Assembly (NCBI GenBank): GCA_945859975.1
Contig: CAMAPH010000017.1
Span: forward strand, 1-54,742
Source of the DNA: Chthonomonas calidirosea
GTDB lineage: Bacteria; Armatimonadota; Fimbriimonadia; Fimbriimonadales; Fimbriimonadaceae
Length of the DNA stretch: 54,742 bases
Reading direction: 5' to 3'
The translations under genes were made by a program, and so were the position numbers. Below are positions 24,222-46,318 of this stretch, piece after piece. The notes under the pieces were generated by a model that was not told the origin of the DNA, searched no databases, and was given only the letters and a program-made list of their open reading frames with translations. How positions within the stretch are numbered: position 1 is the stretch's first letter; the number at the start of each line of letters is the position of its first letter.

Positions 24222-24677
24222 ATGAAGAAAGTATACATTCTCGCCGTCGCATTCGTTGCCCTTACTACTCATATTGCGCTTGCCCAAGAAGCATCCGACA
24301 AAACGCTTTACCTGCACGGGTTCCGATCCCCTTCGATTGGTTTGGAGTATCGATCCGGTTCGGTTGGCGTCCACGCGGGTCTTTACACAACCATTCTCGG
24401 AAAGGGCGAGAAGTCGACCGAATTCGTAAAGGTTGGCGCGACCGGCTACTGGAAAGGCTTCTTAGGTCCACGCTTCGAATCGTTCGGCGGCGTCTCCTAC
24501 GTCCGCGGCCAAAACCGCGAGTACCGAAAGAAGGACGGCCTGTTCATCGAGCAAGGCTTTGTCTACGATCTTGGTAAGAACTTCGAATTCCGACTGGGAA
24601 CGGGCATCTTGCTGGCGAAGGGGTTCAAAGCCAAATTCAACCCAACCGTAGGCTTCAGCTACCGTTTCAAAATGTAA
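24222..24677 (+). CDS. Secreted, probable small outer-membrane beta-barrel protein
   Basis: Signal peptide ending ALA-Q, alternating amphipathic strands, C-terminal VGFSYRF. Confidence 0.6.
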   Translation: MKKVYILAVAFVALTTHIALAQEASDKTLYLHGFRSPSIGLEYRSGSVGVHAGLYTTILGKGEKSTEFVKVGATGYWKGFLGPRFESFGGVSYVRGQNREYRKKDGLFIEQGFVYDLGKNFEFRLGTGILLAKGFKAKFNPTVGFSYRFKM

Positions 24678-24787
24678 GTCGCCGACTTGGCCCTCACTTC
24701 TCAATCGAGCTTGGGGGCCACACATCGTCTGTGGTCCTAGTTTCTTCCGACTAGCTCAACCCCAAATCGCGTACATTCGTTGGACGC

Positions 24788-25870
24788 GTGGAAATGACAA
24801 ACCAATTCCGAAACTGGATGTTCATCGCGATGGTGGGCGTGGTCGCCTACCTTGCCGCCTCGGTGATGCAGCCGTTTGTCTCTGCACTGCTATGGGCGTC
24901 TGCCCTCACCATCCTCACCGCCCCGCTTTACGAAAAGGTACGTAATGGTTGCGAGCGAGGAAGATTCAAAAAGAGCGCAGAGACCATCGCCGGTCTTGTG
25001 GCCTGCCTCGTGACAATCCTTGTTTTTGTCCTTCCGTTTGTCATTGTTCTGCTTGGTATCAGTCCGCAAGCAGAGGGTGTTGGTGCAACCGACGGGTCTT
25101 CCAGAAGTATCGAGCGCACCCTACAAAACCTTGACCAACAGCTTGCCTCGGTTAAGGCCAGCGTCGGGGCCAGTTCCTTTTCGCTCGAACGAACGTGGCA
25201 AGAGAACCAGAAGGAGATCGTGAGCGGCTTGCAAGCCCCGCTTGTCGGGGTGCTGAAGAGCCTTGGCGTGACACTGTTTAGCCTCGGCATCGCCATCTTG
25301 GCCCAGTTCTTTTTGCTCCGTGACGGCTGGAAACTCAAGGAGGGAGCCCTCGACTTGATTCCGCTCGAACACACTCAGACCGAGCGCCTGCTGCAGCGTT
25401 TGACCGATACGGTTTGGGCGGTGTTCTACGGGACGGTGCTCGTGGCGATGCTGCAAGGCGGCCTCATCGGTGCCGCGTACGCCTACGTCGGCTTGCCCAA
25501 TTGGCTTCTTCTGACCGTGCTCTCTGCGGTGATGGCCATCATTCCGCTCCTCGGCGCACCCGTGGTGTATTTCCCGGTCGCGTTCCTGTTGCTCTTCCAA
25601 GGCAAAACCCAAGAGGCACTGATCATTCTCGGCTTTGGCACGATGTTCGTCAGCAACATCGACAATGTCATCAAGCCGTTCCTTATCGGTGGACGGTCGA
25701 ACCTGCACCCATTGCCGATCTTCTTCTCGATCCTTGGCGGCGTTTTCTTCTTCGGACCGATCGGCGTCATCTCTGGCCCGATGTTGCTCACCATCACCTT
25801 GGTGGTCATTGAGGCGCTCCGAGAGAAGACCAAGCTGCCCGACGCACCAGAAACCGCCGCATCCGAGTAG
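24788..25870 (+). CDS. AI-2E family transporter
   Basis: FFLLRDG, VA.LQG, IP.LGA, DNVIKP.LIG, HPL.IFFSILGG..FG..G...GP. Confidence 0.9.
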   Translation: MEMTNQFRNWMFIAMVGVVAYLAASVMQPFVSALLWASALTILTAPLYEKVRNGCERGRFKKSAETIAGLVACLVTILVFVLPFVIVLLGISPQAEGVGATDGSSRSIERTLQNLDQQLASVKASVGASSFSLERTWQENQKEIVSGLQAPLVGVLKSLGVTLFSLGIAILAQFFLLRDGWKLKEGALDLIPLEHTQTERLLQRLTDTVWAVFYGTVLVAMLQGGLIGAAYAYVGLPNWLLLTVLSAVMAIIPLLGAPVVYFPVAFLLLFQGKTQEALIILGFGTMFVSNIDNVIKPFLIGGRSNLHPLPIFFSILGGVFFFGPIGVISGPMLLTITLVVIEALREKTKLPDAPETAASE

Positions 25871-25880
25871 GATTCGCGGC

Positions 25881-26753
25881 ATGACAACATTTCTTGGCAC
25901 ATGGGAAACCCCGGGCAAACCGGCGGTTGAGACGGCATGGCGCGCTTTCCAGGGCGGGGCAAATCTTCGGGAGTGCATCGAACAAGGTCTCGCCGTCTGC
26001 GAGATGGACCCGACCTTCCTCGCCATCGGCCTTGGCTCGCTGCCAAACTCCGATGGCGAGATCGAGCTTGATGCCGCCATGATGGACGGCGAGAACCTCG
26101 AGTGCGGCGGCGTTTGCTCCGTCCGAGGAATCGTGCCGGTCATCTCCGTCGCCAAGAAAGTGCTGGAAGAAACTCCGCACAATCTCCTTGCCGGTGAGCA
26201 GGCGCGTCGATTCGCGATCTCGAAAGGCTTCACCCCTCGGAACTTGGTGACCGAAGAGATTGCCCGACAATACGAAAAGTGGCGGGCAGGCGTGTTTCCC
26301 GACGAGTACATGCACTCCACCTCAGATCTTCATGGCGATACCGTGACCATGCTTGGGCTCAACGACGGTCACTGCGTCGCTGCCAGCAGCACAAGCGGCC
26401 TCGCCTGGAAGCTCCCCGGCCGCGTGGGCGACTCCCCGATCTTTGGGGCTGGACTTTACGCCGATGACGAAATCGGCTGCGCCGGCGCCACCGGCCTTGG
26501 CGAAGAACTTTGGAAAGCCATGGCCTCCTACCGCGCCACTCGCAACATGGAAGCCGGCATGACCGCCCAAGAAGCCTGCGACGAAGTGATCCAGCACATG
26601 ATCCGCCGCCTCCCTAACGCCTGCGTTATGAGCTGCGTGGTCCTTGCCCTACGAAAAGACGGCGACTTCGGCGCGGCCATCACGACCGGCAAGTTCGACC
26701 TTTGGGTTTGCCAAGATGGCGCAGTTTCAACGCACGCATTTGAACCTAAATAA
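25881..26753 (+). CDS. N4-(beta-N-acetylglucosaminyl)-L-asparaginase / isoaspartyl peptidase (Ntn hydrolase)
   Basis: ELDAAMMDG, HGDT autocleavage site, STSGLAWKLPGRVGDSPI.GAG, ATG.GE; ATG 25881 chosen over 25635. Confidence 0.9.
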   Translation: MTTFLGTWETPGKPAVETAWRAFQGGANLRECIEQGLAVCEMDPTFLAIGLGSLPNSDGEIELDAAMMDGENLECGGVCSVRGIVPVISVAKKVLEETPHNLLAGEQARRFAISKGFTPRNLVTEEIARQYEKWRAGVFPDEYMHSTSDLHGDTVTMLGLNDGHCVAASSTSGLAWKLPGRVGDSPIFGAGLYADDEIGCAGATGLGEELWKAMASYRATRNMEAGMTAQEACDEVIQHMIRRLPNACVMSCVVLALRKDGDFGAAITTGKFDLWVCQDGAVSTHAFEPK

Positions 26754-26768
26754 GACAGGATCGCTCCC

Positions 26769-27605
26769 ATGCTTGGAAACCTACGTCGCCGCGCGCTTGA
26801 ACAAAAATTAAAGGGCATCTTCCGGTTCAGAAGAGACCGCAACGGGCTGACGCAAGAAGAAATTTACGAAGGCATCAATAGCGGAAAGTTCCTGATCAGC
26901 ACGCTTTCGTTTGCGTTCGGATTTGCTGTGATGACCAACTGCCTCACGAGCATGTACCCATTCTTCGCGCTTCAAGAAGAAGGATGGGTGCGGTCTTCGC
27001 GCGGCGCTGCCTTCGGCGCTGTCTGGTGTCTCGTAACGATCTTCTTCACAAATCGTGAGCTCAAGAAAATCAAAGCACGGCGACTCGATGATCAGATCAC
27101 CGGCCTAATTGTTCTGTCTCGATACGCGACCGAAACCGTAGCCGCGCTAACTCAAACGAGCCAAATCTTGCGCTGCGTTCGTGTGATCGATACCGAAAGT
27201 AGCCGGCCAAACTACGTGGCGAGCAATCAAAATGAGTCCGTTCAAAGGCAACTCGACGAACTCGAGGGTTTAGCCATAAACGACCGGATCGCGGTTGATC
27301 GGGATAGCCCGGACGACATCATTACCGCTATCTTTCACACGCTGGTTGAATTCGAATCACGTGGCGTGTTGCGCAGATCGACCGTGCTGGATGTGACCGA
27401 CGTCCCTGGGGACATCTTTGCCCGCCTTGTTCAAGAGTACGGCTCACACATCAAGGCATTTCAGGTCATTCCAAAGCGCCTTTCGGCATCTGGAAAGCAA
27501 AAGCTGGGCACGATGACGGCGTTTAGCGACGCCGACTATGAAACGTTGGCACCTGTTCGATTCCGAACCACCGACATCCGCGTTGACTGGCCACTTAATA
27601 CCTAG
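26769..27605 (+). CDS. Hypothetical 2-TM membrane protein with CARF-like (Cam1-like) C-terminal domain
   Basis: Two hydrophobic helices, then GLIVLS...LRCVRVIDTESS...VD.DSPDDI...GV....VLDVTDVPG...FQVI; fold call by eye. Confidence 0.55.
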   Translation: MLGNLRRRALEQKLKGIFRFRRDRNGLTQEEIYEGINSGKFLISTLSFAFGFAVMTNCLTSMYPFFALQEEGWVRSSRGAAFGAVWCLVTIFFTNRELKKIKARRLDDQITGLIVLSRYATETVAALTQTSQILRCVRVIDTESSRPNYVASNQNESVQRQLDELEGLAINDRIAVDRDSPDDIITAIFHTLVEFESRGVLRRSTVLDVTDVPGDIFARLVQEYGSHIKAFQVIPKRLSASGKQKLGTMTAFSDADYETLAPVRFRTTDIRVDWPLNT

Positions 27606-27693
27606 GTCGGCACCCACTTCGTTCTGTGTGGATGCATCACGCCGGGGCCAAACATATTACAATCGGGTAATACCTAGGTACGGCAACGGAGCC

Positions 27694-28479
27694 GTGAGCG
27701 TGATATTGGTGACAGCACCGCAAAACCTAAAAGAATCGATCTACCGCACCATCGCACAGCATCGGCTCGGCATGTTTACCGCCGACGTTTGCGATGCCCT
27801 CAAAAAAACAAGCCAAGACCTGGGCAGCAGTTTTGAAGCCCTCCTCGCCGAGGGTCGGCTTCATAGCTTTGCCGGATTCTGGATGGTTCCGGAGACCTTC
27901 GACAAAGCCGCCGAAAGGTTCTTGGACGAACTGCGTCGCCAGCAATCCGCCGACCTACGCGTCGTGTATTTTGACGCCGAGGCCATTGCAAAAGCCGTCG
28001 ATTTGCCGTGGCACGGAAAGCCCTTGCAGCGCATCGTCAGCCTGCTAGAAAGCCGAGGCGCGCTCCGAATCGATCTACTTCACATCCGACTCACCGACTT
28101 GACCCTAGAACTCACGCCACGGCAAGTCGATCTTCTGGCGCGGGCCATGCCTTTCGTGAAGCAGAATCCCGTCAACGTCTTAAGCCCGGCAGAAATCGCC
28201 CGCGCGCTTGTGGTTCCGATTCCGGCCATCTCCGAAATCCTTCGCTTAGGCACATTCGCGGACCAAACGATTGAGGTCACGGAGCAGATGTACTACTCGC
28301 CAGAGCAGATCGAGGCGATTCAACAAACGATGCGTGAGGCGTTTGGAAAGCGGGAATTCACCGCGAGCGAAGCGCGTCAGGCCCTGGGCACGAGCCGAAA
28401 GTACATCATTCCGATTCTCGAGTACCTCGATGCCAGCGGATTTACCAAACGAAGTGAAGACCTAAGGACAATTGCTTAG
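27694..28479 (+). CDS. Stand-alone SelB C-terminal winged-helix (SECIS-binding) domain protein
   Basis: FTASEARQALGTSRKYIIPILEYLD..GFTKR.EDLR matches the SelB WH4 motif; no GTPase domain; start uncertain (GTG 27694). Confidence 0.8.
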   Translation: MSVILVTAPQNLKESIYRTIAQHRLGMFTADVCDALKKTSQDLGSSFEALLAEGRLHSFAGFWMVPETFDKAAERFLDELRRQQSADLRVVYFDAEAIAKAVDLPWHGKPLQRIVSLLESRGALRIDLLHIRLTDLTLELTPRQVDLLARAMPFVKQNPVNVLSPAEIARALVVPIPAISEILRLGTFADQTIEVTEQMYYSPEQIEAIQQTMREAFGKREFTASEARQALGTSRKYIIPILEYLDASGFTKRSEDLRTIA

Positions 28480-29321
28480 GCGATCAGAGTTCGAAGCGCA
28501 GCTCCAACCGATGCCGGCTTCATAACAATGCACTCCACATCGCCGTACCCTTCCGCCAGCAGGCGTGCGGCCAGCGCTTGGCCCTCCGGCGCACGGATCA
28601 GCAATCCTTCCGGGTGCCGCTGGACCGAAACCTGGAACGGGGACACCAAAGCCCGCACCGCGCCTTGATGCTCAGTTCGTACGATCATCTCGGTCTCCGA
28701 CACCCGCGTCAGCAACTCCTCCACGCGCCCCGCAAACCGCACCTCAAGCGCGCTGAGCACTATCACCGCATCGCAAAGCTCCACGATTTCGGGCCGGTGG
28801 GTCGCAATGACATCGCATACACCCGCGCTGCTGCCCTTTTCTAAATGCCCCCAAACCGAATCAAAGGTCCAAGGGTCCAGATCATCAAGCTGGCCATCCC
28901 AGAGCCGAACATCTGCCGATGAGCTGAGAAGGGCAAGCGTCTCCGCCGCGGCTTCTTGGCTTGGCGAAAGGTCAGAAACCGAATGTGCCCGAACATCCCA
29001 GAGCCGCGTTGCGACGAGGAGTTCCGTGGACTGCGACGCTGAATTCTCTTGAGTCCGCTTCGCGATCGTTTGCGGCTTGCTCCTCGGAGAGAGCGTTCCC
29101 GGTTCAAGAAAGAACACCTCACCTTCAGAGTGAACGCTCCCTTCTTCCAGTCGATCCTGTCCCGCGATTGCCCGGAGCAGCCGAGATTTGCCCGATGCTC
29201 CTGGCCCCACGACGGCGAGCCGCTGGCCGGCCGCGAGCGACAGGGTCATTGCCAAGCCCCGTCCGCAAAGGCGAACCTGGCTCAGCGCAACCCGATCAAC
29301 TCTCGATTGGACGGCATTCAT
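28476..29321 (-). CDS. ABC transporter ATP-binding protein with degenerate motifs
   Basis: Walker A GPGASGKS, signature LSPSQ, Walker B LWDGQ, H-loop ATH. Confidence 0.75.
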   Translation of the reverse strand: MNAVQSRVDRVALSQVRLCGRGLAMTLSLAAGQRLAVVGPGASGKSRLLRAIAGQDRLEEGSVHSEGEVFFLEPGTLSPRSKPQTIAKRTQENSASQSTELLVATRLWDVRAHSVSDLSPSQEAAAETLALLSSSADVRLWDGQLDDLDPWTFDSVWGHLEKGSSAGVCDVIATHRPEIVELCDAVIVLSALEVRFAGRVEELLTRVSETEMIVRTEHQGAVRALVSPFQVSVQRHPEGLLIRAPEGQALAARLLAEGYGDVECIVMKPASVGAALRTLIA

Positions 29322-35808: not shown

Positions 35809-36152
35809 AGGTTCATCGCGGAGAAATTTGGCTAGTCAGTTGGGAGCCACATCGCGGATCAGAGCAGGCTGGCACCCGTCCGTCTCTCATCATCCAAGCC
35901 AACGAAGCGAACGAGTTGGAGTACTTTGAGAACACTATCGTTCTCGCCATGTCGACGACTCCCGCCGTTGATGATTTGCTCCATATCTCTGTCGAACCGA
36001 GCCGCCTTAATGGTCTAAGCAAGGCCGGCATTGTTCGCTGCGAGCAGGTGCTTACGGTCTCAAGGTCAAGGCTAATCCGAAAGTTTGGAATTCTGGAGCC
36101 AAGGTTCCTCGCCAAAGTGGACGCTGCTCTTCGAGCTGTGCTTGCACTATGA
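35805..36152 (+). CDS. mazF: PemK/MazF family toxin (endoribonuclease)
   Basis: RGEIWLV...P.RGSEQAG.RP.LIIQ, NGL.K.G...CEQV.TVS..RL...G. Confidence 0.93.
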   Translation: MKVHRGEIWLVSWEPHRGSEQAGTRPSLIIQANEANELEYFENTIVLAMSTTPAVDDLLHISVEPSRLNGLSKAGIVRCEQVLTVSRSRLIRKFGILEPRFLAKVDAALRAVLAL

Positions 36153-36283
36153 GGTGGGGTCAGATCTTTAGCCACAGGACTCACTAAGAGATTCTGTTCT
36201 CAACGTTGATCAAATAGGCTAGAAAACTGACGCTCTTCCGAAGAAACTATAGAGGTGAGCAAAACTGAAATTTTTGCTTTATT

Positions 36284-37141
36284 TTAACAGTAAGGCGACT
36301 TAGATTTTGAGAGCCTGAATCCTTTACGTTGAGACAGTTCCTCGTAGAGGAAGTCGTGTCGCTCAGATAAATTGAAGGGTCCCCGCTTCACCTCTTCTAT
36401 CGCACTATTCGAATCCTTCCACGTGTAAACTTTGCGAAGTTGATTCCCAATGCACTCAACTTTGCCCTGCCGCTCGAAGGGAATATTCAGGATACGGATC
36501 TCTTTCTCTTCACTTAAAATTGACAATTTCGTGCTTGCCAGACATACAAACAATGCTGCAATCAACTCGCGCGCCCGAGCCTGCGCTTCTTCATTCTTCC
36601 TAAGCCCTACTCCATTCAACGCTTCCAGAAACTTTTGGACATACTGATGATTCTGCTCTTCAATACTTTCAACATAACGACACCTGAAAGCAAGATTGAG
36701 TCGTTTTGACCCGCCGTTCAGTACTCCTAAATTAGTTAATCGCGTTGCATCGACTTTAAGTGCAACTCCTGCACCAGTGTCTCCGTAGCGCCGCCACATC
36801 AATGGTTGGTCGCCAAGTTCCGAAAAAGAAAGCACGTACACTTCTTGAATCGCGGATTCAAACTCGATTTTAGCCGTATGACGGGTACCGTCCGACCTCT
36901 GTCCAAGATCGAGCTCCTTTAGTGCGTCTCCAGCAACGAGGAGCCCATCTGTCACAAGTTCCCTGGGATCGTTCATCGTATGGATATGCGACAACCGGAA
37001 TCCACCCGTTAAGATCGAACTTAAGGCAGTTACACTTGTGTAATGCCACGCGGACGGGGGCTCCGCCAGTAATTCAACAGGCTCTGCTCCTGAGATTTCC
37101 TGAACAAACTGACTAATCTGGGATAGCTGGAGTGGGCGCAT
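36284..37141 (-). CDS. DUF2971 domain protein
   Basis: HYTS, MNDP.E, YVLSFS...DQ.LMW.RYG..G.GV.L, K....EEKE.R; visibly more AT-rich than flanks. Confidence 0.8.
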   Translation of the reverse strand: MRPLQLSQISQFVQEISGAEPVELLAEPPSAWHYTSVTALSSILTGGFRLSHIHTMNDPRELVTDGLLVAGDALKELDLGQRSDGTRHTAKIEFESAIQEVYVLSFSELGDQPLMWRRYGDTGAGVALKVDATRLTNLGVLNGGSKRLNLAFRCRYVESIEEQNHQYVQKFLEALNGVGLRKNEEAQARARELIAALFVCLASTKLSILSEEKEIRILNIPFERQGKVECIGNQLRKVYTWKDSNSAIEEVKRGPFNLSERHDFLYEELSQRKGFRLSKSKSPYC

Positions 37142-41474: not shown

Positions 41475-43331
41475 GTGGCACATTCGCTGGACCCCGAGTA
41501 TTTCAGTTGGGAGAGCGATACATTCAGTATCACCCCAAGCAATTCAACCGATCTCATCACGATTGCTGATGCGATACAGGTAGGCACGGCGGGCAGCTTG
41601 TCGCTCATCACTCCCGACGGAAAAACTCTTACCCTTGCTAGCGTGCCGGTCGGCTTACTGCCCGTCTCGGCGAAGAGAGTTCTATCCACGGGCACCACGG
41701 CCGCTCAATTGGTTGGCGTTGTGAGGCAAGAAGTGATTTCACGCAAATGGTCAAAATTCGATCTAGCGAAATTACAAGATTGGTCCACCTACGGTTACAC
41801 CCTTCCCGACGGCCAATTCGTCGAGAGATCGCTCGACGGCAATTGGAGAACCGGTAAAGACGTAGCGGAACTCTTACCTAGCGATTGGAAAGATGAAGAT
41901 GTTTGGACCGTTGTATACGCAGACCCCATAACTGGTTCGGATAACGCCAACTACGAAAGTGGGTTGAGCTGGACTACCGCCTACCAGAGTCTGAAAGCCG
42001 CCATCGGCAAAAAGTTTCTCCCACCTCCACCTCCAACTGACGAAGATCCAGACCCTGATCCAATTCCCATAACCAAAAAACTGATCATCGTCCCCGATGA
42101 TGCGAAGTTCTGGTTTGCAAATGGCGAAGGCGGCCCTTGGACCAATAGTTCGCCAACAAATCCAGTTTTCAGTACCATCATTGTTCCGTACTCTGTCTAT
42201 CTCAACAATGGCTTCGGCAAGGAAAGCTGGACCTGTTCGCTAGAAGTTAAAACCTCTTGGGCACCAGACCCGAATCACAGCGGGGTGTATATAGGCACAA
42301 CACAAACCGACGACCCGAACGGCAGTTGGCCGCTATTAAATGCAGCCGTGACTCAATCCATCAGATCAGGCGCAGTCTTTGATCAAGGGAACCCGGACAC
42401 CTTTGGTCTGCCCCGTCGCTTCCTGTACCAAGCCAGCGAAGCCTTGGTTCAGGTCACACCTTACACATATGCTTTAAAAGGTACAAATCAGCTGGTCGTT
42501 AATGTTGGTAGCGGTGCAAATCGTGGCATCGAAACGGTTAAGGTCTTCCTTTGTAGCATTACGAACGCCTTAATCAAGCCCTTTACCGGTTCGATTCACA
42601 TTGTTAACTGCAAATTCGAAGGAGGCAAGCCAGGGTTCTCTATAAGTGTTGCTTCTGGCGATTCAGGGCAGTTGGCGGTGAGGCTTTACGGGTGCGAAGT
42701 CCGGATGACTGTAGACGGGTCGCCGGGAATTAACCTTAACGGTACCGTGGCGGAAGCGACAGTGGACATTGGCCTTTATCGCTGCATAAGTGCCGGGAAT
42801 GGTTTTGATGGCGTTTCCTACCTGGGAAATTGCACGTTCGTCGAGTCAGATTGTTGGGCCTTTGGAAATGGGTACTACCAAAATGCCTCTTCCGGAGCAT
42901 ACGGCAAAATTAATGGTTTTACAACTCATAACTATGTAAAGGGCATTCGTACAAACTGTATTGCGTACGGTAACGGAGGTCCGAACTTCGCCGATTCGGG
43001 CAATAAAGGTGCGATTGCTGTGGTAAATCTGGGCTGCTACGCTTTCGATTCGTGGGGTGACAGGATAATCACCCACTACAGTACGGACTTCGCCGTTATT
43101 GCCGACGTACCATTCGGAGGATACGACGGGTCTGCTAGAGTATGGCTGATCGATTGTAAGACCCATTCCCCGGAAGGCAAATCGTCGACCTCAACTTTTG
43201 GAATTAACGTCGAGAAAAGCGCCACTGCTGGAGCGGCAATGGCATATTTCACTGGAGACTGGTTCTCTAGATCAAGGCTTTCAGGCGGTGCCACGATGGC
43301 CAACGTCACCCGCCTGCGCTTCCCAACCTAA
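41475..43331 (+). CDS. Hypothetical protein: N-terminal GTA/phage head-spike-base-like domain plus C-terminal right-handed beta-helix-like domain
   Basis: ITPSNSTDL...ADAIQVGTAGSL.L...DG...TLASVPVGLLPVSAKRVLSTGTTAAQLVG; YADP.TGSD..N..G.SW..AY.SL..A; repeated C.A.GNG..G/N beta-helix turns. Confidence 0.65.
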   Translation: MAHSLDPEYFSWESDTFSITPSNSTDLITIADAIQVGTAGSLSLITPDGKTLTLASVPVGLLPVSAKRVLSTGTTAAQLVGVVRQEVISRKWSKFDLAKLQDWSTYGYTLPDGQFVERSLDGNWRTGKDVAELLPSDWKDEDVWTVVYADPITGSDNANYESGLSWTTAYQSLKAAIGKKFLPPPPPTDEDPDPDPIPITKKLIIVPDDAKFWFANGEGGPWTNSSPTNPVFSTIIVPYSVYLNNGFGKESWTCSLEVKTSWAPDPNHSGVYIGTTQTDDPNGSWPLLNAAVTQSIRSGAVFDQGNPDTFGLPRRFLYQASEALVQVTPYTYALKGTNQLVVNVGSGANRGIETVKVFLCSITNALIKPFTGSIHIVNCKFEGGKPGFSISVASGDSGQLAVRLYGCEVRMTVDGSPGINLNGTVAEATVDIGLYRCISAGNGFDGVSYLGNCTFVESDCWAFGNGYYQNASSGAYGKINGFTTHNYVKGIRTNCIAYGNGGPNFADSGNKGAIAVVNLGCYAFDSWGDRIITHYSTDFAVIADVPFGGYDGSARVWLIDCKTHSPEGKSSTSTFGINVEKSATAGAAMAYFTGDWFSRSRLSGGATMANVTRLRFPT

Positions 43332-43341
43332 GGTTAAACCC

Positions 43342-43929
43342 ATGAAACTACTGTCTGCACTGTTCTCCCTTACCTGCCTCTTCTTTATCGGCTGCGGCGG
43401 AAACGATTCGTCAGCGCCCGATTCAGCAATTCCCATGCAAAACCTCACCCTCAGCAATAACGAGTCTTCAAACGTCCGTCCGTTAAAGGCTAGTCTCGAT
43501 CCACAGGCCAGTGCCCTTCTCGAAACCCTTGATGGCGGAAGGAATGTACTGGCATTCTTTACATTCGATGATAGAAAAGCACTCGATTTGACTGAATTGA
43601 ACTTGGTGGTGCAGAAGGCTCCAATTGTGCAAGGCACTATCGTTAACGTGGAAGACTTTGTGTCTCTCAACAACGATTCCATCAAGTATAAAAACGAAAT
43701 TGCATCGCTTTTACCGGACGGATCATTGGGTTCGTTCACCGGCCGATACTGGTATGCAACCTCGGGACAAATTGCCGTGGAAGAGTTGACTGAAACGTAC
43801 GTGGTTGTACGATTTTCAAACATCCGCTTTGTCTTCGACCCACTGGAAGACACCGAGGGGAGACCAAACGACGCAGAAGGTGAGTTCAGCCTCAACGGTA
43901 CGGTCCGCCTGCCGGTCAACTACAACTAG
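43342..43929 (+). CDS. Hypothetical lipoprotein
   Basis: MKLLSALFSLTCLFFIG-CGG lipobox; ATG 43342 chosen. Confidence 0.75.
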   Translation: MKLLSALFSLTCLFFIGCGGNDSSAPDSAIPMQNLTLSNNESSNVRPLKASLDPQASALLETLDGGRNVLAFFTFDDRKALDLTELNLVVQKAPIVQGTIVNVEDFVSLNNDSIKYKNEIASLLPDGSLGSFTGRYWYATSGQIAVEELTETYVVVRFSNIRFVFDPLEDTEGRPNDAEGEFSLNGTVRLPVNYN

Positions 43930-43968
43930 TCCGACTGGGTCTTGATGTTTTCCGTCGCTCCCCGCGTC

Positions 43969-43995
43969 GTAGCTCACTCGTCCCGAGTGAGCTAC
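43969..43995 (+). repeat. GTAG-family REP-like palindrome, copy 2
   Basis: GTAGCTCACTCG-tcc-CGAGTGAGCTAC perfect 12-bp stem between convergent genes. Confidence 0.65.
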
Positions 43996-44078
43996 TTGTG
44001 CGGATGTCGTCCAACTCCTAACTCTTCCAAACTCCCAAACGAATCAGAATGAACACGAACCGGTTTCCCAGATCAAAC

Positions 44079-44717
44079 TCACCGGCCCAGTTGCTCTAAC
44101 CGACTAACCCAACCATCAAAGTGCGGGCACTTCTCGCGAATCGCGGGTAGACCAATGTGCTCTACGACTTGCGGACCGGCGGTGGACTTTCGATGCTTGT
44201 AGCTAGGAATCTCCCGAATCAACCGCTTGCTGGGCGCCGTTTCCTCGCCCTCATTTATATCTTCCGGGGCCAAGTGTTTGACCTCACGCTTCAACGAGCT
44301 GATGCCGATTTCGGCATCTCCATCTGGAAACGCCACGCTCAACTTGTCGAGATCGACGTACAGAAGTGCTTCAAACTCATACGACTGTACGTAAGGCAGA
44401 AAATTTGGGTTCGGCAACCCTTCGAGCATCGCTTCCTCCATCTGCATCGCTTTCGAAACGCCGGACAATGAAACAATTTTTGGCGAATCCGGGACGGTCA
44501 TGATCTTGTAAAGGTCGAAAATCGTCGTAAGCCACTCATGGCTTTTACGGCTTTGCAGAGTCAGATTAAGCTCCCGCTTCAGCTTCTTCCATGACAGCCC
44601 ACCACCAAGATTCGTCGCTTTTGCGAACACGTTCCGCTGAGTCAAGTGCGGCCTAAGGACTTGGTTCACAAAGTTCACCTCGGTTTGTCCCTCACAAAGC
44701 ACCGTTAGTGAGATCAC
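44079..44717 (-). CDS. DUF4276 family protein (TOPRIM-like)
   Basis: VLCEGQTE..FV..VL.P, TT.FDLY, F.PYVQ.YEFEALL, PEDIN....TAPSKR, Y.K...G...IGL..IR..CPHF..W. Confidence 0.88.
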   Translation of the reverse strand: MISLTVLCEGQTEVNFVNQVLRPHLTQRNVFAKATNLGGGLSWKKLKRELNLTLQSRKSHEWLTTIFDLYKIMTVPDSPKIVSLSGVSKAMQMEEAMLEGLPNPNFLPYVQSYEFEALLYVDLDKLSVAFPDGDAEIGISSLKREVKHLAPEDINEGEETAPSKRLIREIPSYKHRKSTAGPQVVEHIGLPAIREKCPHFDGWVSRLEQLGR

Positions 44718-45851
44718 TTATTGCGGTCCTCCACCTGTCACGTTCTTCTCGTAAAGTTGACCGAGGTCGTACTCTTCTAGCCAGCCTTCCAATGCCACCG
44801 GGTCGAGCCGCTTAATCACCGTGCTACCGCGTCCTTCAGCATCCTCGTCCCGCTCGACTACGGCAATATCCGCTGGATCATAATCCCGAATGAGGAGCGG
44901 CGACTGAGTAGCAACGATCACCTGACGCTTCTCCGATACCGCTTTCAGCAACTCCGCGACAATCCGAATTCCCTGCGGATGCAGACCAAGCTCTGGCTCG
45001 TCGTAAAGCATAATGCTCGGCATCGTTTCATCGGGCTGTAACAACGTGGTGATCAACGCGATTGTCCGCAGAGTTCCATCTGATAGCTGATGCGGCCCGA
45101 ACAAAGTCCCCGAACGGTCCCGCCATCGGAGCATAACGAAGCGGTCATTCAACGCATCTGGCTCGACGACGAGGTCCTCGATAAATGGCGCGATGTATTG
45201 GACCGTGTCGAGAATCCGCCGATAATGTGCCGGGCGTTTCTCCTTTAAGCGATACAGGAAAGCCGCCAAGTTTCCGCCGTTGGAAAGCAGGCCATGCTCG
45301 CCGTTTAGTTCCTGGCTGACCCGCATGTTCGCATCTTCGCTGGTGTCGTGAAAGTGATAAACGCGAATTTGTTCTGCCAGATGTCGAAAAAGTCGCGCGG
45401 AACTTAACTCGCTGAACATTCCGGGCGACACAACCCACGATTCCGAATGTCCACTTCCAGAAAAGTATCTTTCGCTTTGACCTTTGCCCGAGAGACCCTC
45501 TGCGACGCTTTCGTTCCCAAAATAGAGATCGTTAGACTCGCTCCACTTGAGCCTACATTCGTACTCGTTCCAGACTTGTTCATCGTCGATTCGAAAAGTG
45601 GCATCGATCGTTTTTGTAACTTGCGGACCGTAATGCAAAAGTGAGGAGGCACGACCTTTCCGGGCCACGTAGAGTTGGAGATTTCCGGACGTTCCGCTAA
45701 ACATCGCGGACGTCATCTGGAAGAACTCAATCAGGTTCGACTTACCCGCTCCGTTCGCGCCGATCAGGACGTTGAAAGCACCAAGCTCAATCTCAACATC
45801 TTTCAGAGATCGAAAGCCCTTGATCTTGAGGTGGGAGATTGTTGTCGGCAT
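44718..45851 (-). CDS. AAA family ATPase (AAA_21/AAA_15 ABC-type)
   Basis: IKGFRS, IGANGAGKSN, YHFHDTS, LSDGTLR, DEPELGLHP, VIVATQSP; ATG 45851 chosen. Confidence 0.9.
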   Translation of the reverse strand: MPTTISHLKIKGFRSLKDVEIELGAFNVLIGANGAGKSNLIEFFQMTSAMFSGTSGNLQLYVARKGRASSLLHYGPQVTKTIDATFRIDDEQVWNEYECRLKWSESNDLYFGNESVAEGLSGKGQSERYFSGSGHSESWVVSPGMFSELSSARLFRHLAEQIRVYHFHDTSEDANMRVSQELNGEHGLLSNGGNLAAFLYRLKEKRPAHYRRILDTVQYIAPFIEDLVVEPDALNDRFVMLRWRDRSGTLFGPHQLSDGTLRTIALITTLLQPDETMPSIMLYDEPELGLHPQGIRIVAELLKAVSEKRQVIVATQSPLLIRDYDPADIAVVERDEDAEGRGSTVIKRLDPVALEGWLEEYDLGQLYEKNVTGGGPQ

Positions 45852-45949
45852 AAGATCAAGGCTCCAAGACGGATTCAAGCTCGCAACCTCACCAATTCGT
45901 GCATTGCGTTCCGCTACAATCTCATTTTACGCGCGAATCCAATCGCCGC

Positions 45950-46318
45950 CTAGAACCGCAGAAAATCCTCGTAGTGCCGAAGCCCGTCACCGTCGAGCGC
46001 AATCAAATCAAACCGCTGCGGCGTCTCCTCCAGCCCGTGCTCCGAAACGAACCGCGACGCGACCGTCTCCAAGTGCCGGAACTTCGAATCCGAGACCGCA
46101 TCCTCCGGCGAGAATCCCGGCGCGGACGTCGCTTTCACCTCGACGAAAACCAGCGTGCCCCCGTCCATCGCCACCAAGTCCAACTCGCCGCCGGGGCGTT
46201 TCCAGCGGCGGGTGACCAGCGTATAGCCGAGCGAGAGCAGGTAGTTCGCGGCCGCGTCCTCCGCCGCCCGGCCAAGTTCCATCCGCGAACTTATTTCTGC
46301 ACCTCGACGTGGGTGCAC
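45950..46318 (-). CDS. yraN: YraN family (UPF0102) protein
   Basis: G..AE..A..YL...GY..V.R.W....GELDLVA.DG.TLVFVEVK, RFDLI. Confidence 0.9.
   Translation of the reverse strand: MHPRRGAEISSRMELGRAAEDAAANYLLSLGYTLVTRRWKRPGGELDLVAMDGGTLVFVEVKATSAPGFSPEDAVSDSKFRHLETVASRFVSEHGLEETPQRFDLIALDGDGLRHYEDFLRF

Follow-up and report, generated by a model that had tools for sequence, protein, structure and literature searches.

The 54,742-nt stretch of contig CAMAPH010000017.1 analyzed here (the window) belongs to a genome that is 95.8% complete and divided into 101 contigs (G000). On its forward strand, at 26769..27605, it carries a gene for a 278-aa protein, here named TM-CARF, which combines two transmembrane (TM) helices with a soluble domain of predicted CARF fold. 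We propose, with a probability of roughly 0.6 and on the strength of structural models, that TM-CARF belongs to a new CARF family, made up of membrane effectors that are gated by a ligand and have no known signal maker. The membrane CARF effectors Cam1, Cap1, Chp1, and the CARF-TM protein of Panoptes form a recently opened class, and each of them is described with a cyclase partner, either Cas10 or mCpol, in the excerpts of the cited sources from which all published systems are characterized below. The TM-CARF family appears to follow the same logic of a sensor joined to membrane helices; it is under selection in genomes in which no known cyclase was found, and the signature basic residue of its sensor is replaced. 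If the protein is active, it would point to an undescribed source of CARF ligands or to a new class of such ligands, and it would provide a small, 278-aa single-gene system for studying the gating of membrane helices by a CARF dimer; should it prove inert or serve a housekeeping role, it would illustrate the limit of what can be deduced from the CARF fold alone.

The 278-aa open reading frame (ORF) starts 16 nt after the stop codon of an asparaginase-family gene, and the sequence AGGA lies approximately 10 nt 5' of its ATG. Its translation contains all of the strings quoted in a preliminary description of the locus (GLIVLS, ILRCVRVIDTESS, VDRDSPDDIITAIFHTLVEFESRGV, VLDVTDVPG, and AFQVI), and the domain order given there, with two TM helices ahead of a soluble domain, is seen both in hydropathy and in the helices of the AlphaFold models. 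The N-terminal segment (aa 1-40; 26769..26888, forward strand as all parts of the gene), predicted to be cytoplasmic, comprises a basic helix at aa 2-21 and the pre-TM motif DRNGLTQEEIYEGINSGK, as indicated by the models and by conservation. TM helix 1 (aa 41-61; 26889..26951) is supported by hydropathy, by a model helix at 40-61 and by conservation, and its hydrophobic character is clear, the Kyte-Doolittle mean being 1.71 over 19 residues (aa 41-59). TM helix 2 (aa 79-95; 27003..27053), assigned from hydropathy, continues as a linker helix to approximately aa 108; it is weaker in the window protein, where the Kyte-Doolittle mean is 2.04 over 15 residues (aa 79-93) and 1.25 over 19, and clearer in the homologues P0003 (1.74) and P0005 (2.37). 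The better of two models places helices at 40-61 and 70-108. Since basic residues flank the helices on both sides (10 Lys or Arg within aa 1-40, and RELKKIKARR after TM helix 2), the positive-inside rule fits a hairpin with both termini inside and the soluble domain in the cytoplasm. We rate it at somewhat better than even odds that TM-CARF is an inner-membrane protein of a new, very small family.

Two AlphaFold models were built, the first from 4 sequences and the second from 6 after the addition of two distant homologues, and both were compared with known structures using Foldseek (350,542 PDB chains) and VIA-align (48,161 representative chains). The first model has a mean predicted local distance difference test score (pLDDT) of 57, with values of 70-90 in the soluble domain, and shows alternating strands and helices. 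The mean of the second model is 74.6, and its ten-residue block means, taken across aa 111-270, range from 65 to 94 and drop at 141-160. The beta-alpha core is formed by strands 112-117, 136-141, 170-175, 205-208, 230-233, and 236-238, followed by a C-terminal hairpin of strands 257-259 and 263-265; the six-stranded Rossmann-like core with a strand 5/6 hairpin that typifies CARF domains is thus present in the models. With the first model, Foldseek returned four matches at E<=0.001, all of them Cam1 chains (best E 6.6e-5, TMt 0.62), and VIA-align placed apo Cam1 (8t64_A) at the top, with Z 10.7 and a root-mean-square deviation (rmsd) of 2.8 over 114 aligned residues; 12 of the top 13 rows were sensors of cyclic oligoadenylate (cOA) from type III CRISPR systems. 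With the second model, the top four Foldseek matches were again all Cam1 and the sole ones at E<=0.001, and Cam1 reached Z 11.2 in VIA-align (rmsd 2.7, 115 of 131 residues aligned). Ranks 1 to 16 of the latter search are occupied by type III CRISPR cOA sensors (Cam1, Cad1, Can2, Card1, Csm6, Csx1-Crn2, Can1, Cami1, Sso2081, Cdn1, and SSO1393), and the first unrelated row stands at rank 17 with Z 8.8. The preliminary description had named a CARF Rossmann-like fold beforehand as the point on which its reading would stand or fall, and Cam1 came first in both Foldseek and both VIA-align searches. Judged by these models, the soluble domain (aa 110-270; 27096..27578) probably has a CARF fold that is nearest to Cam1. 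By sequence, no CARF family model matched in Pfam (E<=1 for the window protein, E<=0.1 for all six family members), NCBIfam, PADLOC, or the PDB sequences, and no Cam1 chain was among the PDB sequence matches at E<=10, whether the single protein or the profile was used. A two-TM channel with an RCK domain was considered and rejected: one MthK chain appeared in Foldseek (probability 0.57, rmsd 20), and the selectivity-filter motif was not seen in the 17 residues that connect the helices.

Two copies of aa 100-278 are predicted to form a homodimer. Over three runs, the interface score ipSAE reached 0.71 versus 0.07 for the best control, and among proteins of solved structure, 20 of 30 that are pairs of one chain pass the mark used for this score, as does 1 of 23 that are single chains. 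The runs share at least 88% of their contacts, and the pLDDT of the partner is at least 81. The predicted interface involves residues 145-147, 209-215, 218, 221, 230, 233, 235-238, 245-252, and 260-275, which belong to the strand-4 loop, helix 4, and the hairpins of strands 5/6 and of the C-terminus. Of the 179 residues, 46 are in this interface, and these include 10 of the domain's 24 invariant residues, a modest enrichment (Fisher p 0.051).

Conserved positions of CARF domains include a Ser or Thr that ends strand 1 and, following strand 4, the signature [DN]x[ST]xxx[RK] (PMC4012209). In TM-CARF, strand 1 (GLIVLS) ends with S117, which is Ser in five of the six family members and Met in P0005. 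The site of the strand-4 signature is occupied by D208-V-T-D-V-P-G214 (27390..27410), in which D208, V209, T210, D211, P213, and G214 are invariant in all six members and Gly takes the place of the basic residue. The ligand motif had been called altered in the preliminary description, and this is confirmed: the D-x-T portion is kept and the Lys/Arg is changed to Gly throughout the family, which leaves half of the signature in place. The RtcR and RV2818 families of CARF proteins also do without the basic residue of strand 4, which suggests other ligands for them (PMC4012209). Invariant in all six members are R118, Y119, E122, R146, N148, D208, V209, T210, D211, P213, G214, F231, Q232, K236, D254, and R264-F265-R266. 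Such basic and aromatic residues at the ends of strands would suit an anionic, base-containing ligand.

The family is known from very few sequences. A word-indexed search of 5.8 billion proteins yielded three relatives among 1644 candidates (97, 75, and 76% identity), and the source name of one close relative is "hypothetical protein [Fimbriimonadaceae bacterium]", Fimbriimonadaceae being part of Armatimonadota. An exhaustive HMMER search with a 4-sequence profile against 1.84 billion representatives gave four matches at E<=0.001 (P0003 to P0006), among them P0004 (278 aa, E 5e-30) and P0005 (236 aa, E 3.5e-13); the two distant homologues share 31 and 25% identity with TM-CARF. P0006 (723 aa, E 1.1e-5) was judged spurious and excluded from alignment A2, as this repetitive protein matches the TM stretch 47-77 alone, five times, and the same verdict applies to L037, where the match (38% identity over 53 residues) lies in the TM part of a 657-aa ORF otherwise unlike the family. 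In total, five relatives were recovered from billions of proteins, and these make a six-member set with the window protein. Repeating the indexed search with the 6-sequence profile gave no further relatives, a metagenome scan with the family profile confirmed none of 416 candidate stretches, and the best score in a protein atlas, 0.77, was under the lead threshold and was not used. Among 175 genomes from the same taxonomic family, 3 contain a match to the profile, and these are also the only 3 in 401 sampled genomes of the phylum: G000 and G021 carry full-length genes and G028 a fragment. Word searches of the literature on CARF, Cam1, transmembrane, and orphan terms, which are not sequence-based, found no paper describing this family.

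Comparison of G000 with G021 reveals 30 synonymous and 8 non-synonymous differences in the TM-CARF gene, equivalent to a ratio of non-synonymous to synonymous rates (dN/dS) of 0.076; seven neighboring genes compared in the same way range from 0.008 to 0.119. The TM-CARF gene is under purifying selection, and because the homologues also conserve it, it is a real gene rather than a chance ORF. Furthermore, the whole 2.7-kb stretch around it occurs in one contig each of two lake-water sequencing runs from two further studies, with 48 and 56 letters that differ from the window and with the gene uninterrupted. The contig from one of these runs (X3) has a paired -1/+1 indel, six bases apart, at 27332-27338 within the gene, after which the frame is back in two codons. 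The window protein and P0001 differ in the region of this indel (His190/Asn), and the blastn alignment of G021 to the gene contains two gaps. Conservation is highest in the membrane part: among the four close homologues, invariant columns make up 18 of 18 (100%) in the pre-TM segment (aa 23-40), 18 of 21 (86%) in TM helix 1, 76% in TM helix 2, and 65% in the CARF core. The membrane part is conserved beyond the CARF core and is therefore more than an anchor.

The genomes that carry TM-CARF were searched for proteins that could make a CARF ligand. The Csm1, Cmr2, and Cas10 palm2 models have no match in G000, and neither the Csm1 nor the palm2 model matches in G021, which is a single contig of 3.3 Mb, or in G028 (the Cmr2 model was run on G000 only); these searches do find matches in control genomes. 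Neither G000 nor G021 has a match to the SMODS (CD-NTase) or mCpol (PF18182) model. The only CRISPR locus found in G000 is of type II and lies on another contig (C66, L002; 5599-11358), where a 1042-aa Cas9 with RuvC_III, Cas9_a, and HNH domains is encoded together with Cas1 and Cas2. The array on C66 has at least 17 repeats of 36 nt at a spacing of approximately 66 nt and reaches the end of the contig. The window itself contains no direct-repeat array. Thus, the earlier remark that cas10, an array, and a CBASS cyclase are not in the window is borne out, matches to Cas10 and SMODS were not found elsewhere in G000 either, and the supposed independence of CRISPR gains support at the level of genomes, since Cas10 was found neither in G000 (95.8% complete) nor in the single-contig G021.

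Among the known systems, Cam1 is the closest in structure. It consists of one TM helix and a CARF domain, binds cyclic tetraadenylate (cA4) as a dimer, and has been predicted to assemble into a tetrameric pore (PMC10808066); most of its homologues are encoded in type III CRISPR loci, and its ligand pocket is capped by loops of the C-terminal strands (PMC10808066). TM-CARF likewise has its TM part on the N-terminal side and, on the C-terminal side, a cytoplasmic CARF domain for which dimerization is predicted, and its C-terminal hairpin, with the invariant R264-F265-R266, lies in the predicted interface, reminiscent of the capping loops of Cam1. However, the two proteins share only 12-14% identity in structural alignments and no HMMER match. 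In the Cam1 family, a single N-terminal TM helix would form the tetrameric pore, lined by a conserved acidic residue; in TM-CARF the hydrophobic helices number two, and they follow a cytoplasmic N-terminus of 40 aa that is conserved; and whereas Cam1 homologues reside mostly in type III loci, Cas10 was not found in the TM-CARF genome. Cap1 comprises two TM helices together with a CARF-like domain and DUF4579, and just 57% of its homologues are in type III loci (bioRxiv 10.1101/2025.11.13.688252), so that copies away from CRISPR would not be unusual for such proteins. Cap1 resembles TM-CARF in that a CARF-type sensor comes after two TM helices; in contrast, the Cap1 motif R(X3)QQ(X10)L occurs in none of the six TM-CARF members, and neither DUF4579 nor any other Pfam family matches. 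No Cap1 structure was among the fold matches, and the comparison with Cap1 covers motif and domain content. Chp1 is built from a HAD domain, four TM helices, and a CARF domain (bioRxiv 10.64898/2026.08.05.743128).

In type II Panoptes, mCpol is paired with a CARF-TM effector that is held off by cyclic triadenylate (cA3), and absence of the ligand is the trigger (PMC13577387). This effector of CARF-plus-TM type works without CRISPR and provides a precedent for guard logic without an infection-activated cyclase. However, it needs an adjacent mCpol, whereas the neighbors of TM-CARF are the asparaginase-family gene and a gene for a SelB C-terminal half (SelB-C). The domain order also appears reversed: in the soluble form of the Panoptes effector, the TM part was replaced by a C-terminal tag (PMC13577387), whereas TM-CARF has its TM part before the CARF domain. 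The missing basic residue of strand 4 is a likeness to RtcR and RV2818 that suggests a ligand other than the usual one (PMC4012209); these, however, are soluble regulators rather than membrane proteins and have no sequence match to TM-CARF. By sequence and motif, TM-CARF belongs to none of the Cam1, Cap1, Chp1, and Panoptes CARF-TM families.

By analogy with Cam1, Cap1, Chp1, and Panoptes, the ligand would be a small anionic molecule, probably nucleotide-derived, that occupies a pocket on the two-fold axis of the dimer. The putative pocket would be lined by the invariant residues R118, Y119, R146, N148, D208, T210, D211, K236, and R264-F265-R266. Within an oligomer, the linker helix may then relay binding or loss of the ligand to the TM region, which is highly conserved, and the resulting change in that region could alter membrane permeability and arrest growth, most plausibly as an anti-phage response. 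Given that the basic residue of strand 4 is missing, as in RtcR and RV2818, and that a known cOA synthase was not found, the canonical cOA made by Cas10 is likely not the ligand. A bolder form of this proposal, which we put forward tentatively from the models, is that TM-CARF acts as a stand-alone, cyclase-free CARF membrane effector, a single-gene and CRISPR-free immune sensor whose remodeled pocket reads a ligand other than Cas10-made cOA. Such remodeling, possible if far from assured, would have kept D-x-T, lost the Lys/Arg, and added the invariant set of Arg, Lys, and aromatic residues. Drawing on the analogies above, conceivable ligands include a host nucleotide depleted by phage, in a guard arrangement like that of type II Panoptes without mCpol, a nucleotide derived from damage or from the phage, and an RNA end. 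RtcR is reportedly a sensor of RNA ends.

The genes around TM-CARF allow its arrival to be traced. On the same strand it is preceded by genes for an AI-2E family transporter (24788..25870; PF01594, E 4.5e-42), the first gene of the run, and an asparaginase_2-family protein (25881..26753; PF01112, E 5.6e-59), the start of which is set by comparison with G020, and it is followed by SelB-C (27694..28479; PF09107, E 2.6e-18), a 261-aa winged-helix half of SelB from which the GTPase half is missing. A terminator-like hairpin is found at 24714-24738, upstream of the transporter gene, and no terminator-like site lies between the four genes; the asparaginase-family gene and TM-CARF are probably co-transcribed. 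A promoter scan was uninformative (1 site versus 1.6 expected). Contigs from RNA libraries cover parts of the asparaginase-family gene (26003-26194) and of SelB-C (27830-28090), and a third piece of 45 nt (26390-26434) fits partially, with loose ends on both sides; no such contig covers the TM-CARF gene, and, being contigs, they are uninformative on transcription.

In five genomes of the same genus, different arrangements follow the asparaginase-family gene. G019 has a full-length 616-aa SelB directly after it, G020 has a 254-aa SelB C-half directly after it, G000 and G021 have TM-CARF and then the SelB C-half, and G028 has a 47-aa ORF similar to the last ~37 codons of TM-CARF and then the SelB C-half. 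These gene orders imply that TM-CARF took the place of the lost GTPase half of SelB and was later deleted in one lineage. The 47-aa ORF of G028 (L006 1495-1638, reverse strand) is closest in wording to the homologue P0002, has the same neighbors, and marks a recent deletion. SelA and SelD were found in G019, which has the full SelB, and not in G000, G021, G028, or G020, which have the short form; thus, truncation of selB goes with loss of the selenocysteine trait. A SelB match is present in 44 of 46 genomes of the genus, many of them with frames of 595-664 aa (full length) and others with 253-320 aa. The SelB-C gene has a dN/dS of 0.033, indicating strong purifying selection, and its product (window 27694-28479; L010, L011, L006) looks like a remnant of SelB kept for a new role after the loss of selenocysteine.

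Several observations weigh against a membrane effector of CARF type. The CARF assignment derives entirely from predicted structure, with no sequence likeness to any family found in Pfam, NCBIfam, PADLOC, or the PDB sequences, and the unrelated Rossmann-like domains score approximately 2.4 Z units lower than Cam1 (8.8 versus 11.2), a margin that is real and not large. The passing score of the dimer may stem in part from the model's memory of solved CARF dimers. The basic residue of strand 4 is Gly in all six members, and the [DN]x[ST]xxx[RK] signature is complete in none of them. The family is also very small and of scattered occurrence, with full-length copies in 2 of the 175 family genomes and the same 2 in the 401 phylum genomes, and the sister species represented by G028 has deleted the gene; such a distribution and the deletion indicate that TM-CARF is dispensable. 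Finally, the genes within approximately 12 kb are housekeeping genes, without any defense or mobile genes.

The last point, together with the same-strand run shared with the AI-2E transporter, asparaginase, and SelB-C genes, is what a non-defense role would lead one to expect. TM-CARF would then be a housekeeping membrane sensor, a regulated channel, or an anchor that binds a common metabolite or nucleotide, and its CARF likeness would reflect either Rossmann-like convergence or a use of the fold for ligands other than cOA, as in RtcR. We regard this as unlikely, although it is the strongest of the alternatives. Flavoprotein reductase domains do reach Z 8.8, and the missing strand-4 residue, as in RtcR and RV2818, does suggest other ligands (PMC4012209); however, the top 16 structural matches are all cOA-sensing CARF proteins and none is a metabolic Rossmann protein, and every Foldseek match at E<=0.001 is Cam1, which is itself a CARF domain fused to a TM helix. 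A housekeeping role would hardly be expected of a gene present in 2 of 175 family genomes. Moreover, the linkage of the asparaginase-family gene with selB predates the arrival of TM-CARF, and the operon context is therefore probably accidental.

A relic is less probable still. According to this explanation, which the preliminary description raised as a decayed effector beside the candidate reading of a sensor repurposed for another ligand, TM-CARF would be a cOA-gated effector left behind by the loss of a type III CRISPR (or mCpol) partner, devoid of a signal and on its way to disappearance. Although the genomes that carry the gene have no detected Cas10, SMODS, or mCpol, the distribution is very patchy, and the last ~37 codons alone persist at the same site in G028, decay finds no support in the dN/dS of 0.076, which is within the range of the housekeeping neighbors. 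In addition, residues of the putative pocket and of the TM region stay unchanged even in homologues of 25% identity, long contigs from the two other lake-water studies contain the gene intact, and a toxic membrane effector without its signal would be expected to decay fast.

An origin of the soluble domain as a degenerate GTPase domain of SelB was rejected as highly improbable: TM-CARF and SelB-C do occupy the site of the full 616-aa SelB of G019, and the D-x-P-G-H motif of switch II in translational GTPases resembles DVTD[VL]PG[DH] of the TM-CARF family (IVDVPGHERF in the SelB of G019), yet BLASTP against that SelB gave nothing collinear (best E 0.37), tblastn with it on window 26500-28600 matched SelB residues 364-614 alone in any frame, the P-loop is found in none of the six members, the motif comes behind the fourth strand, which itself succeeds three beta-alpha units, and this is not the order of a G domain, no GTPase is among the 50 VIA-align rows shown for either model, and the existence of homologues of 25-31% identity places the origin of the family before this locus. 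The resemblance between D-V-P-G-(H/D) and switch II is best read as a coincidence. A ligand-gated membrane CARF effector thus remains the reading that we prefer.

Other features of the window were noted in passing. Convergent with SelB-C, on the reverse strand at 28476-29321, is a gene for a 281-aa protein that matches ABC_tran weakly (114 residues, E 6.6e-8), is conserved in G021 and G028, and has no evident membrane partner alongside. The forward strand at 24222-24677 holds a 151-aa ORF without a Pfam match, the hydrophobic N-terminus of which reads like a signal peptide. Two further ORFs, at 36284-37141 (285 aa) and 41475-43331 (618 aa), match no Pfam family at E<=1e-5. The GC content dips to 0.47 at 36001-37000 and to 0.50-0.53 at 42001-46000, compared with approximately 0.57 elsewhere in the window.

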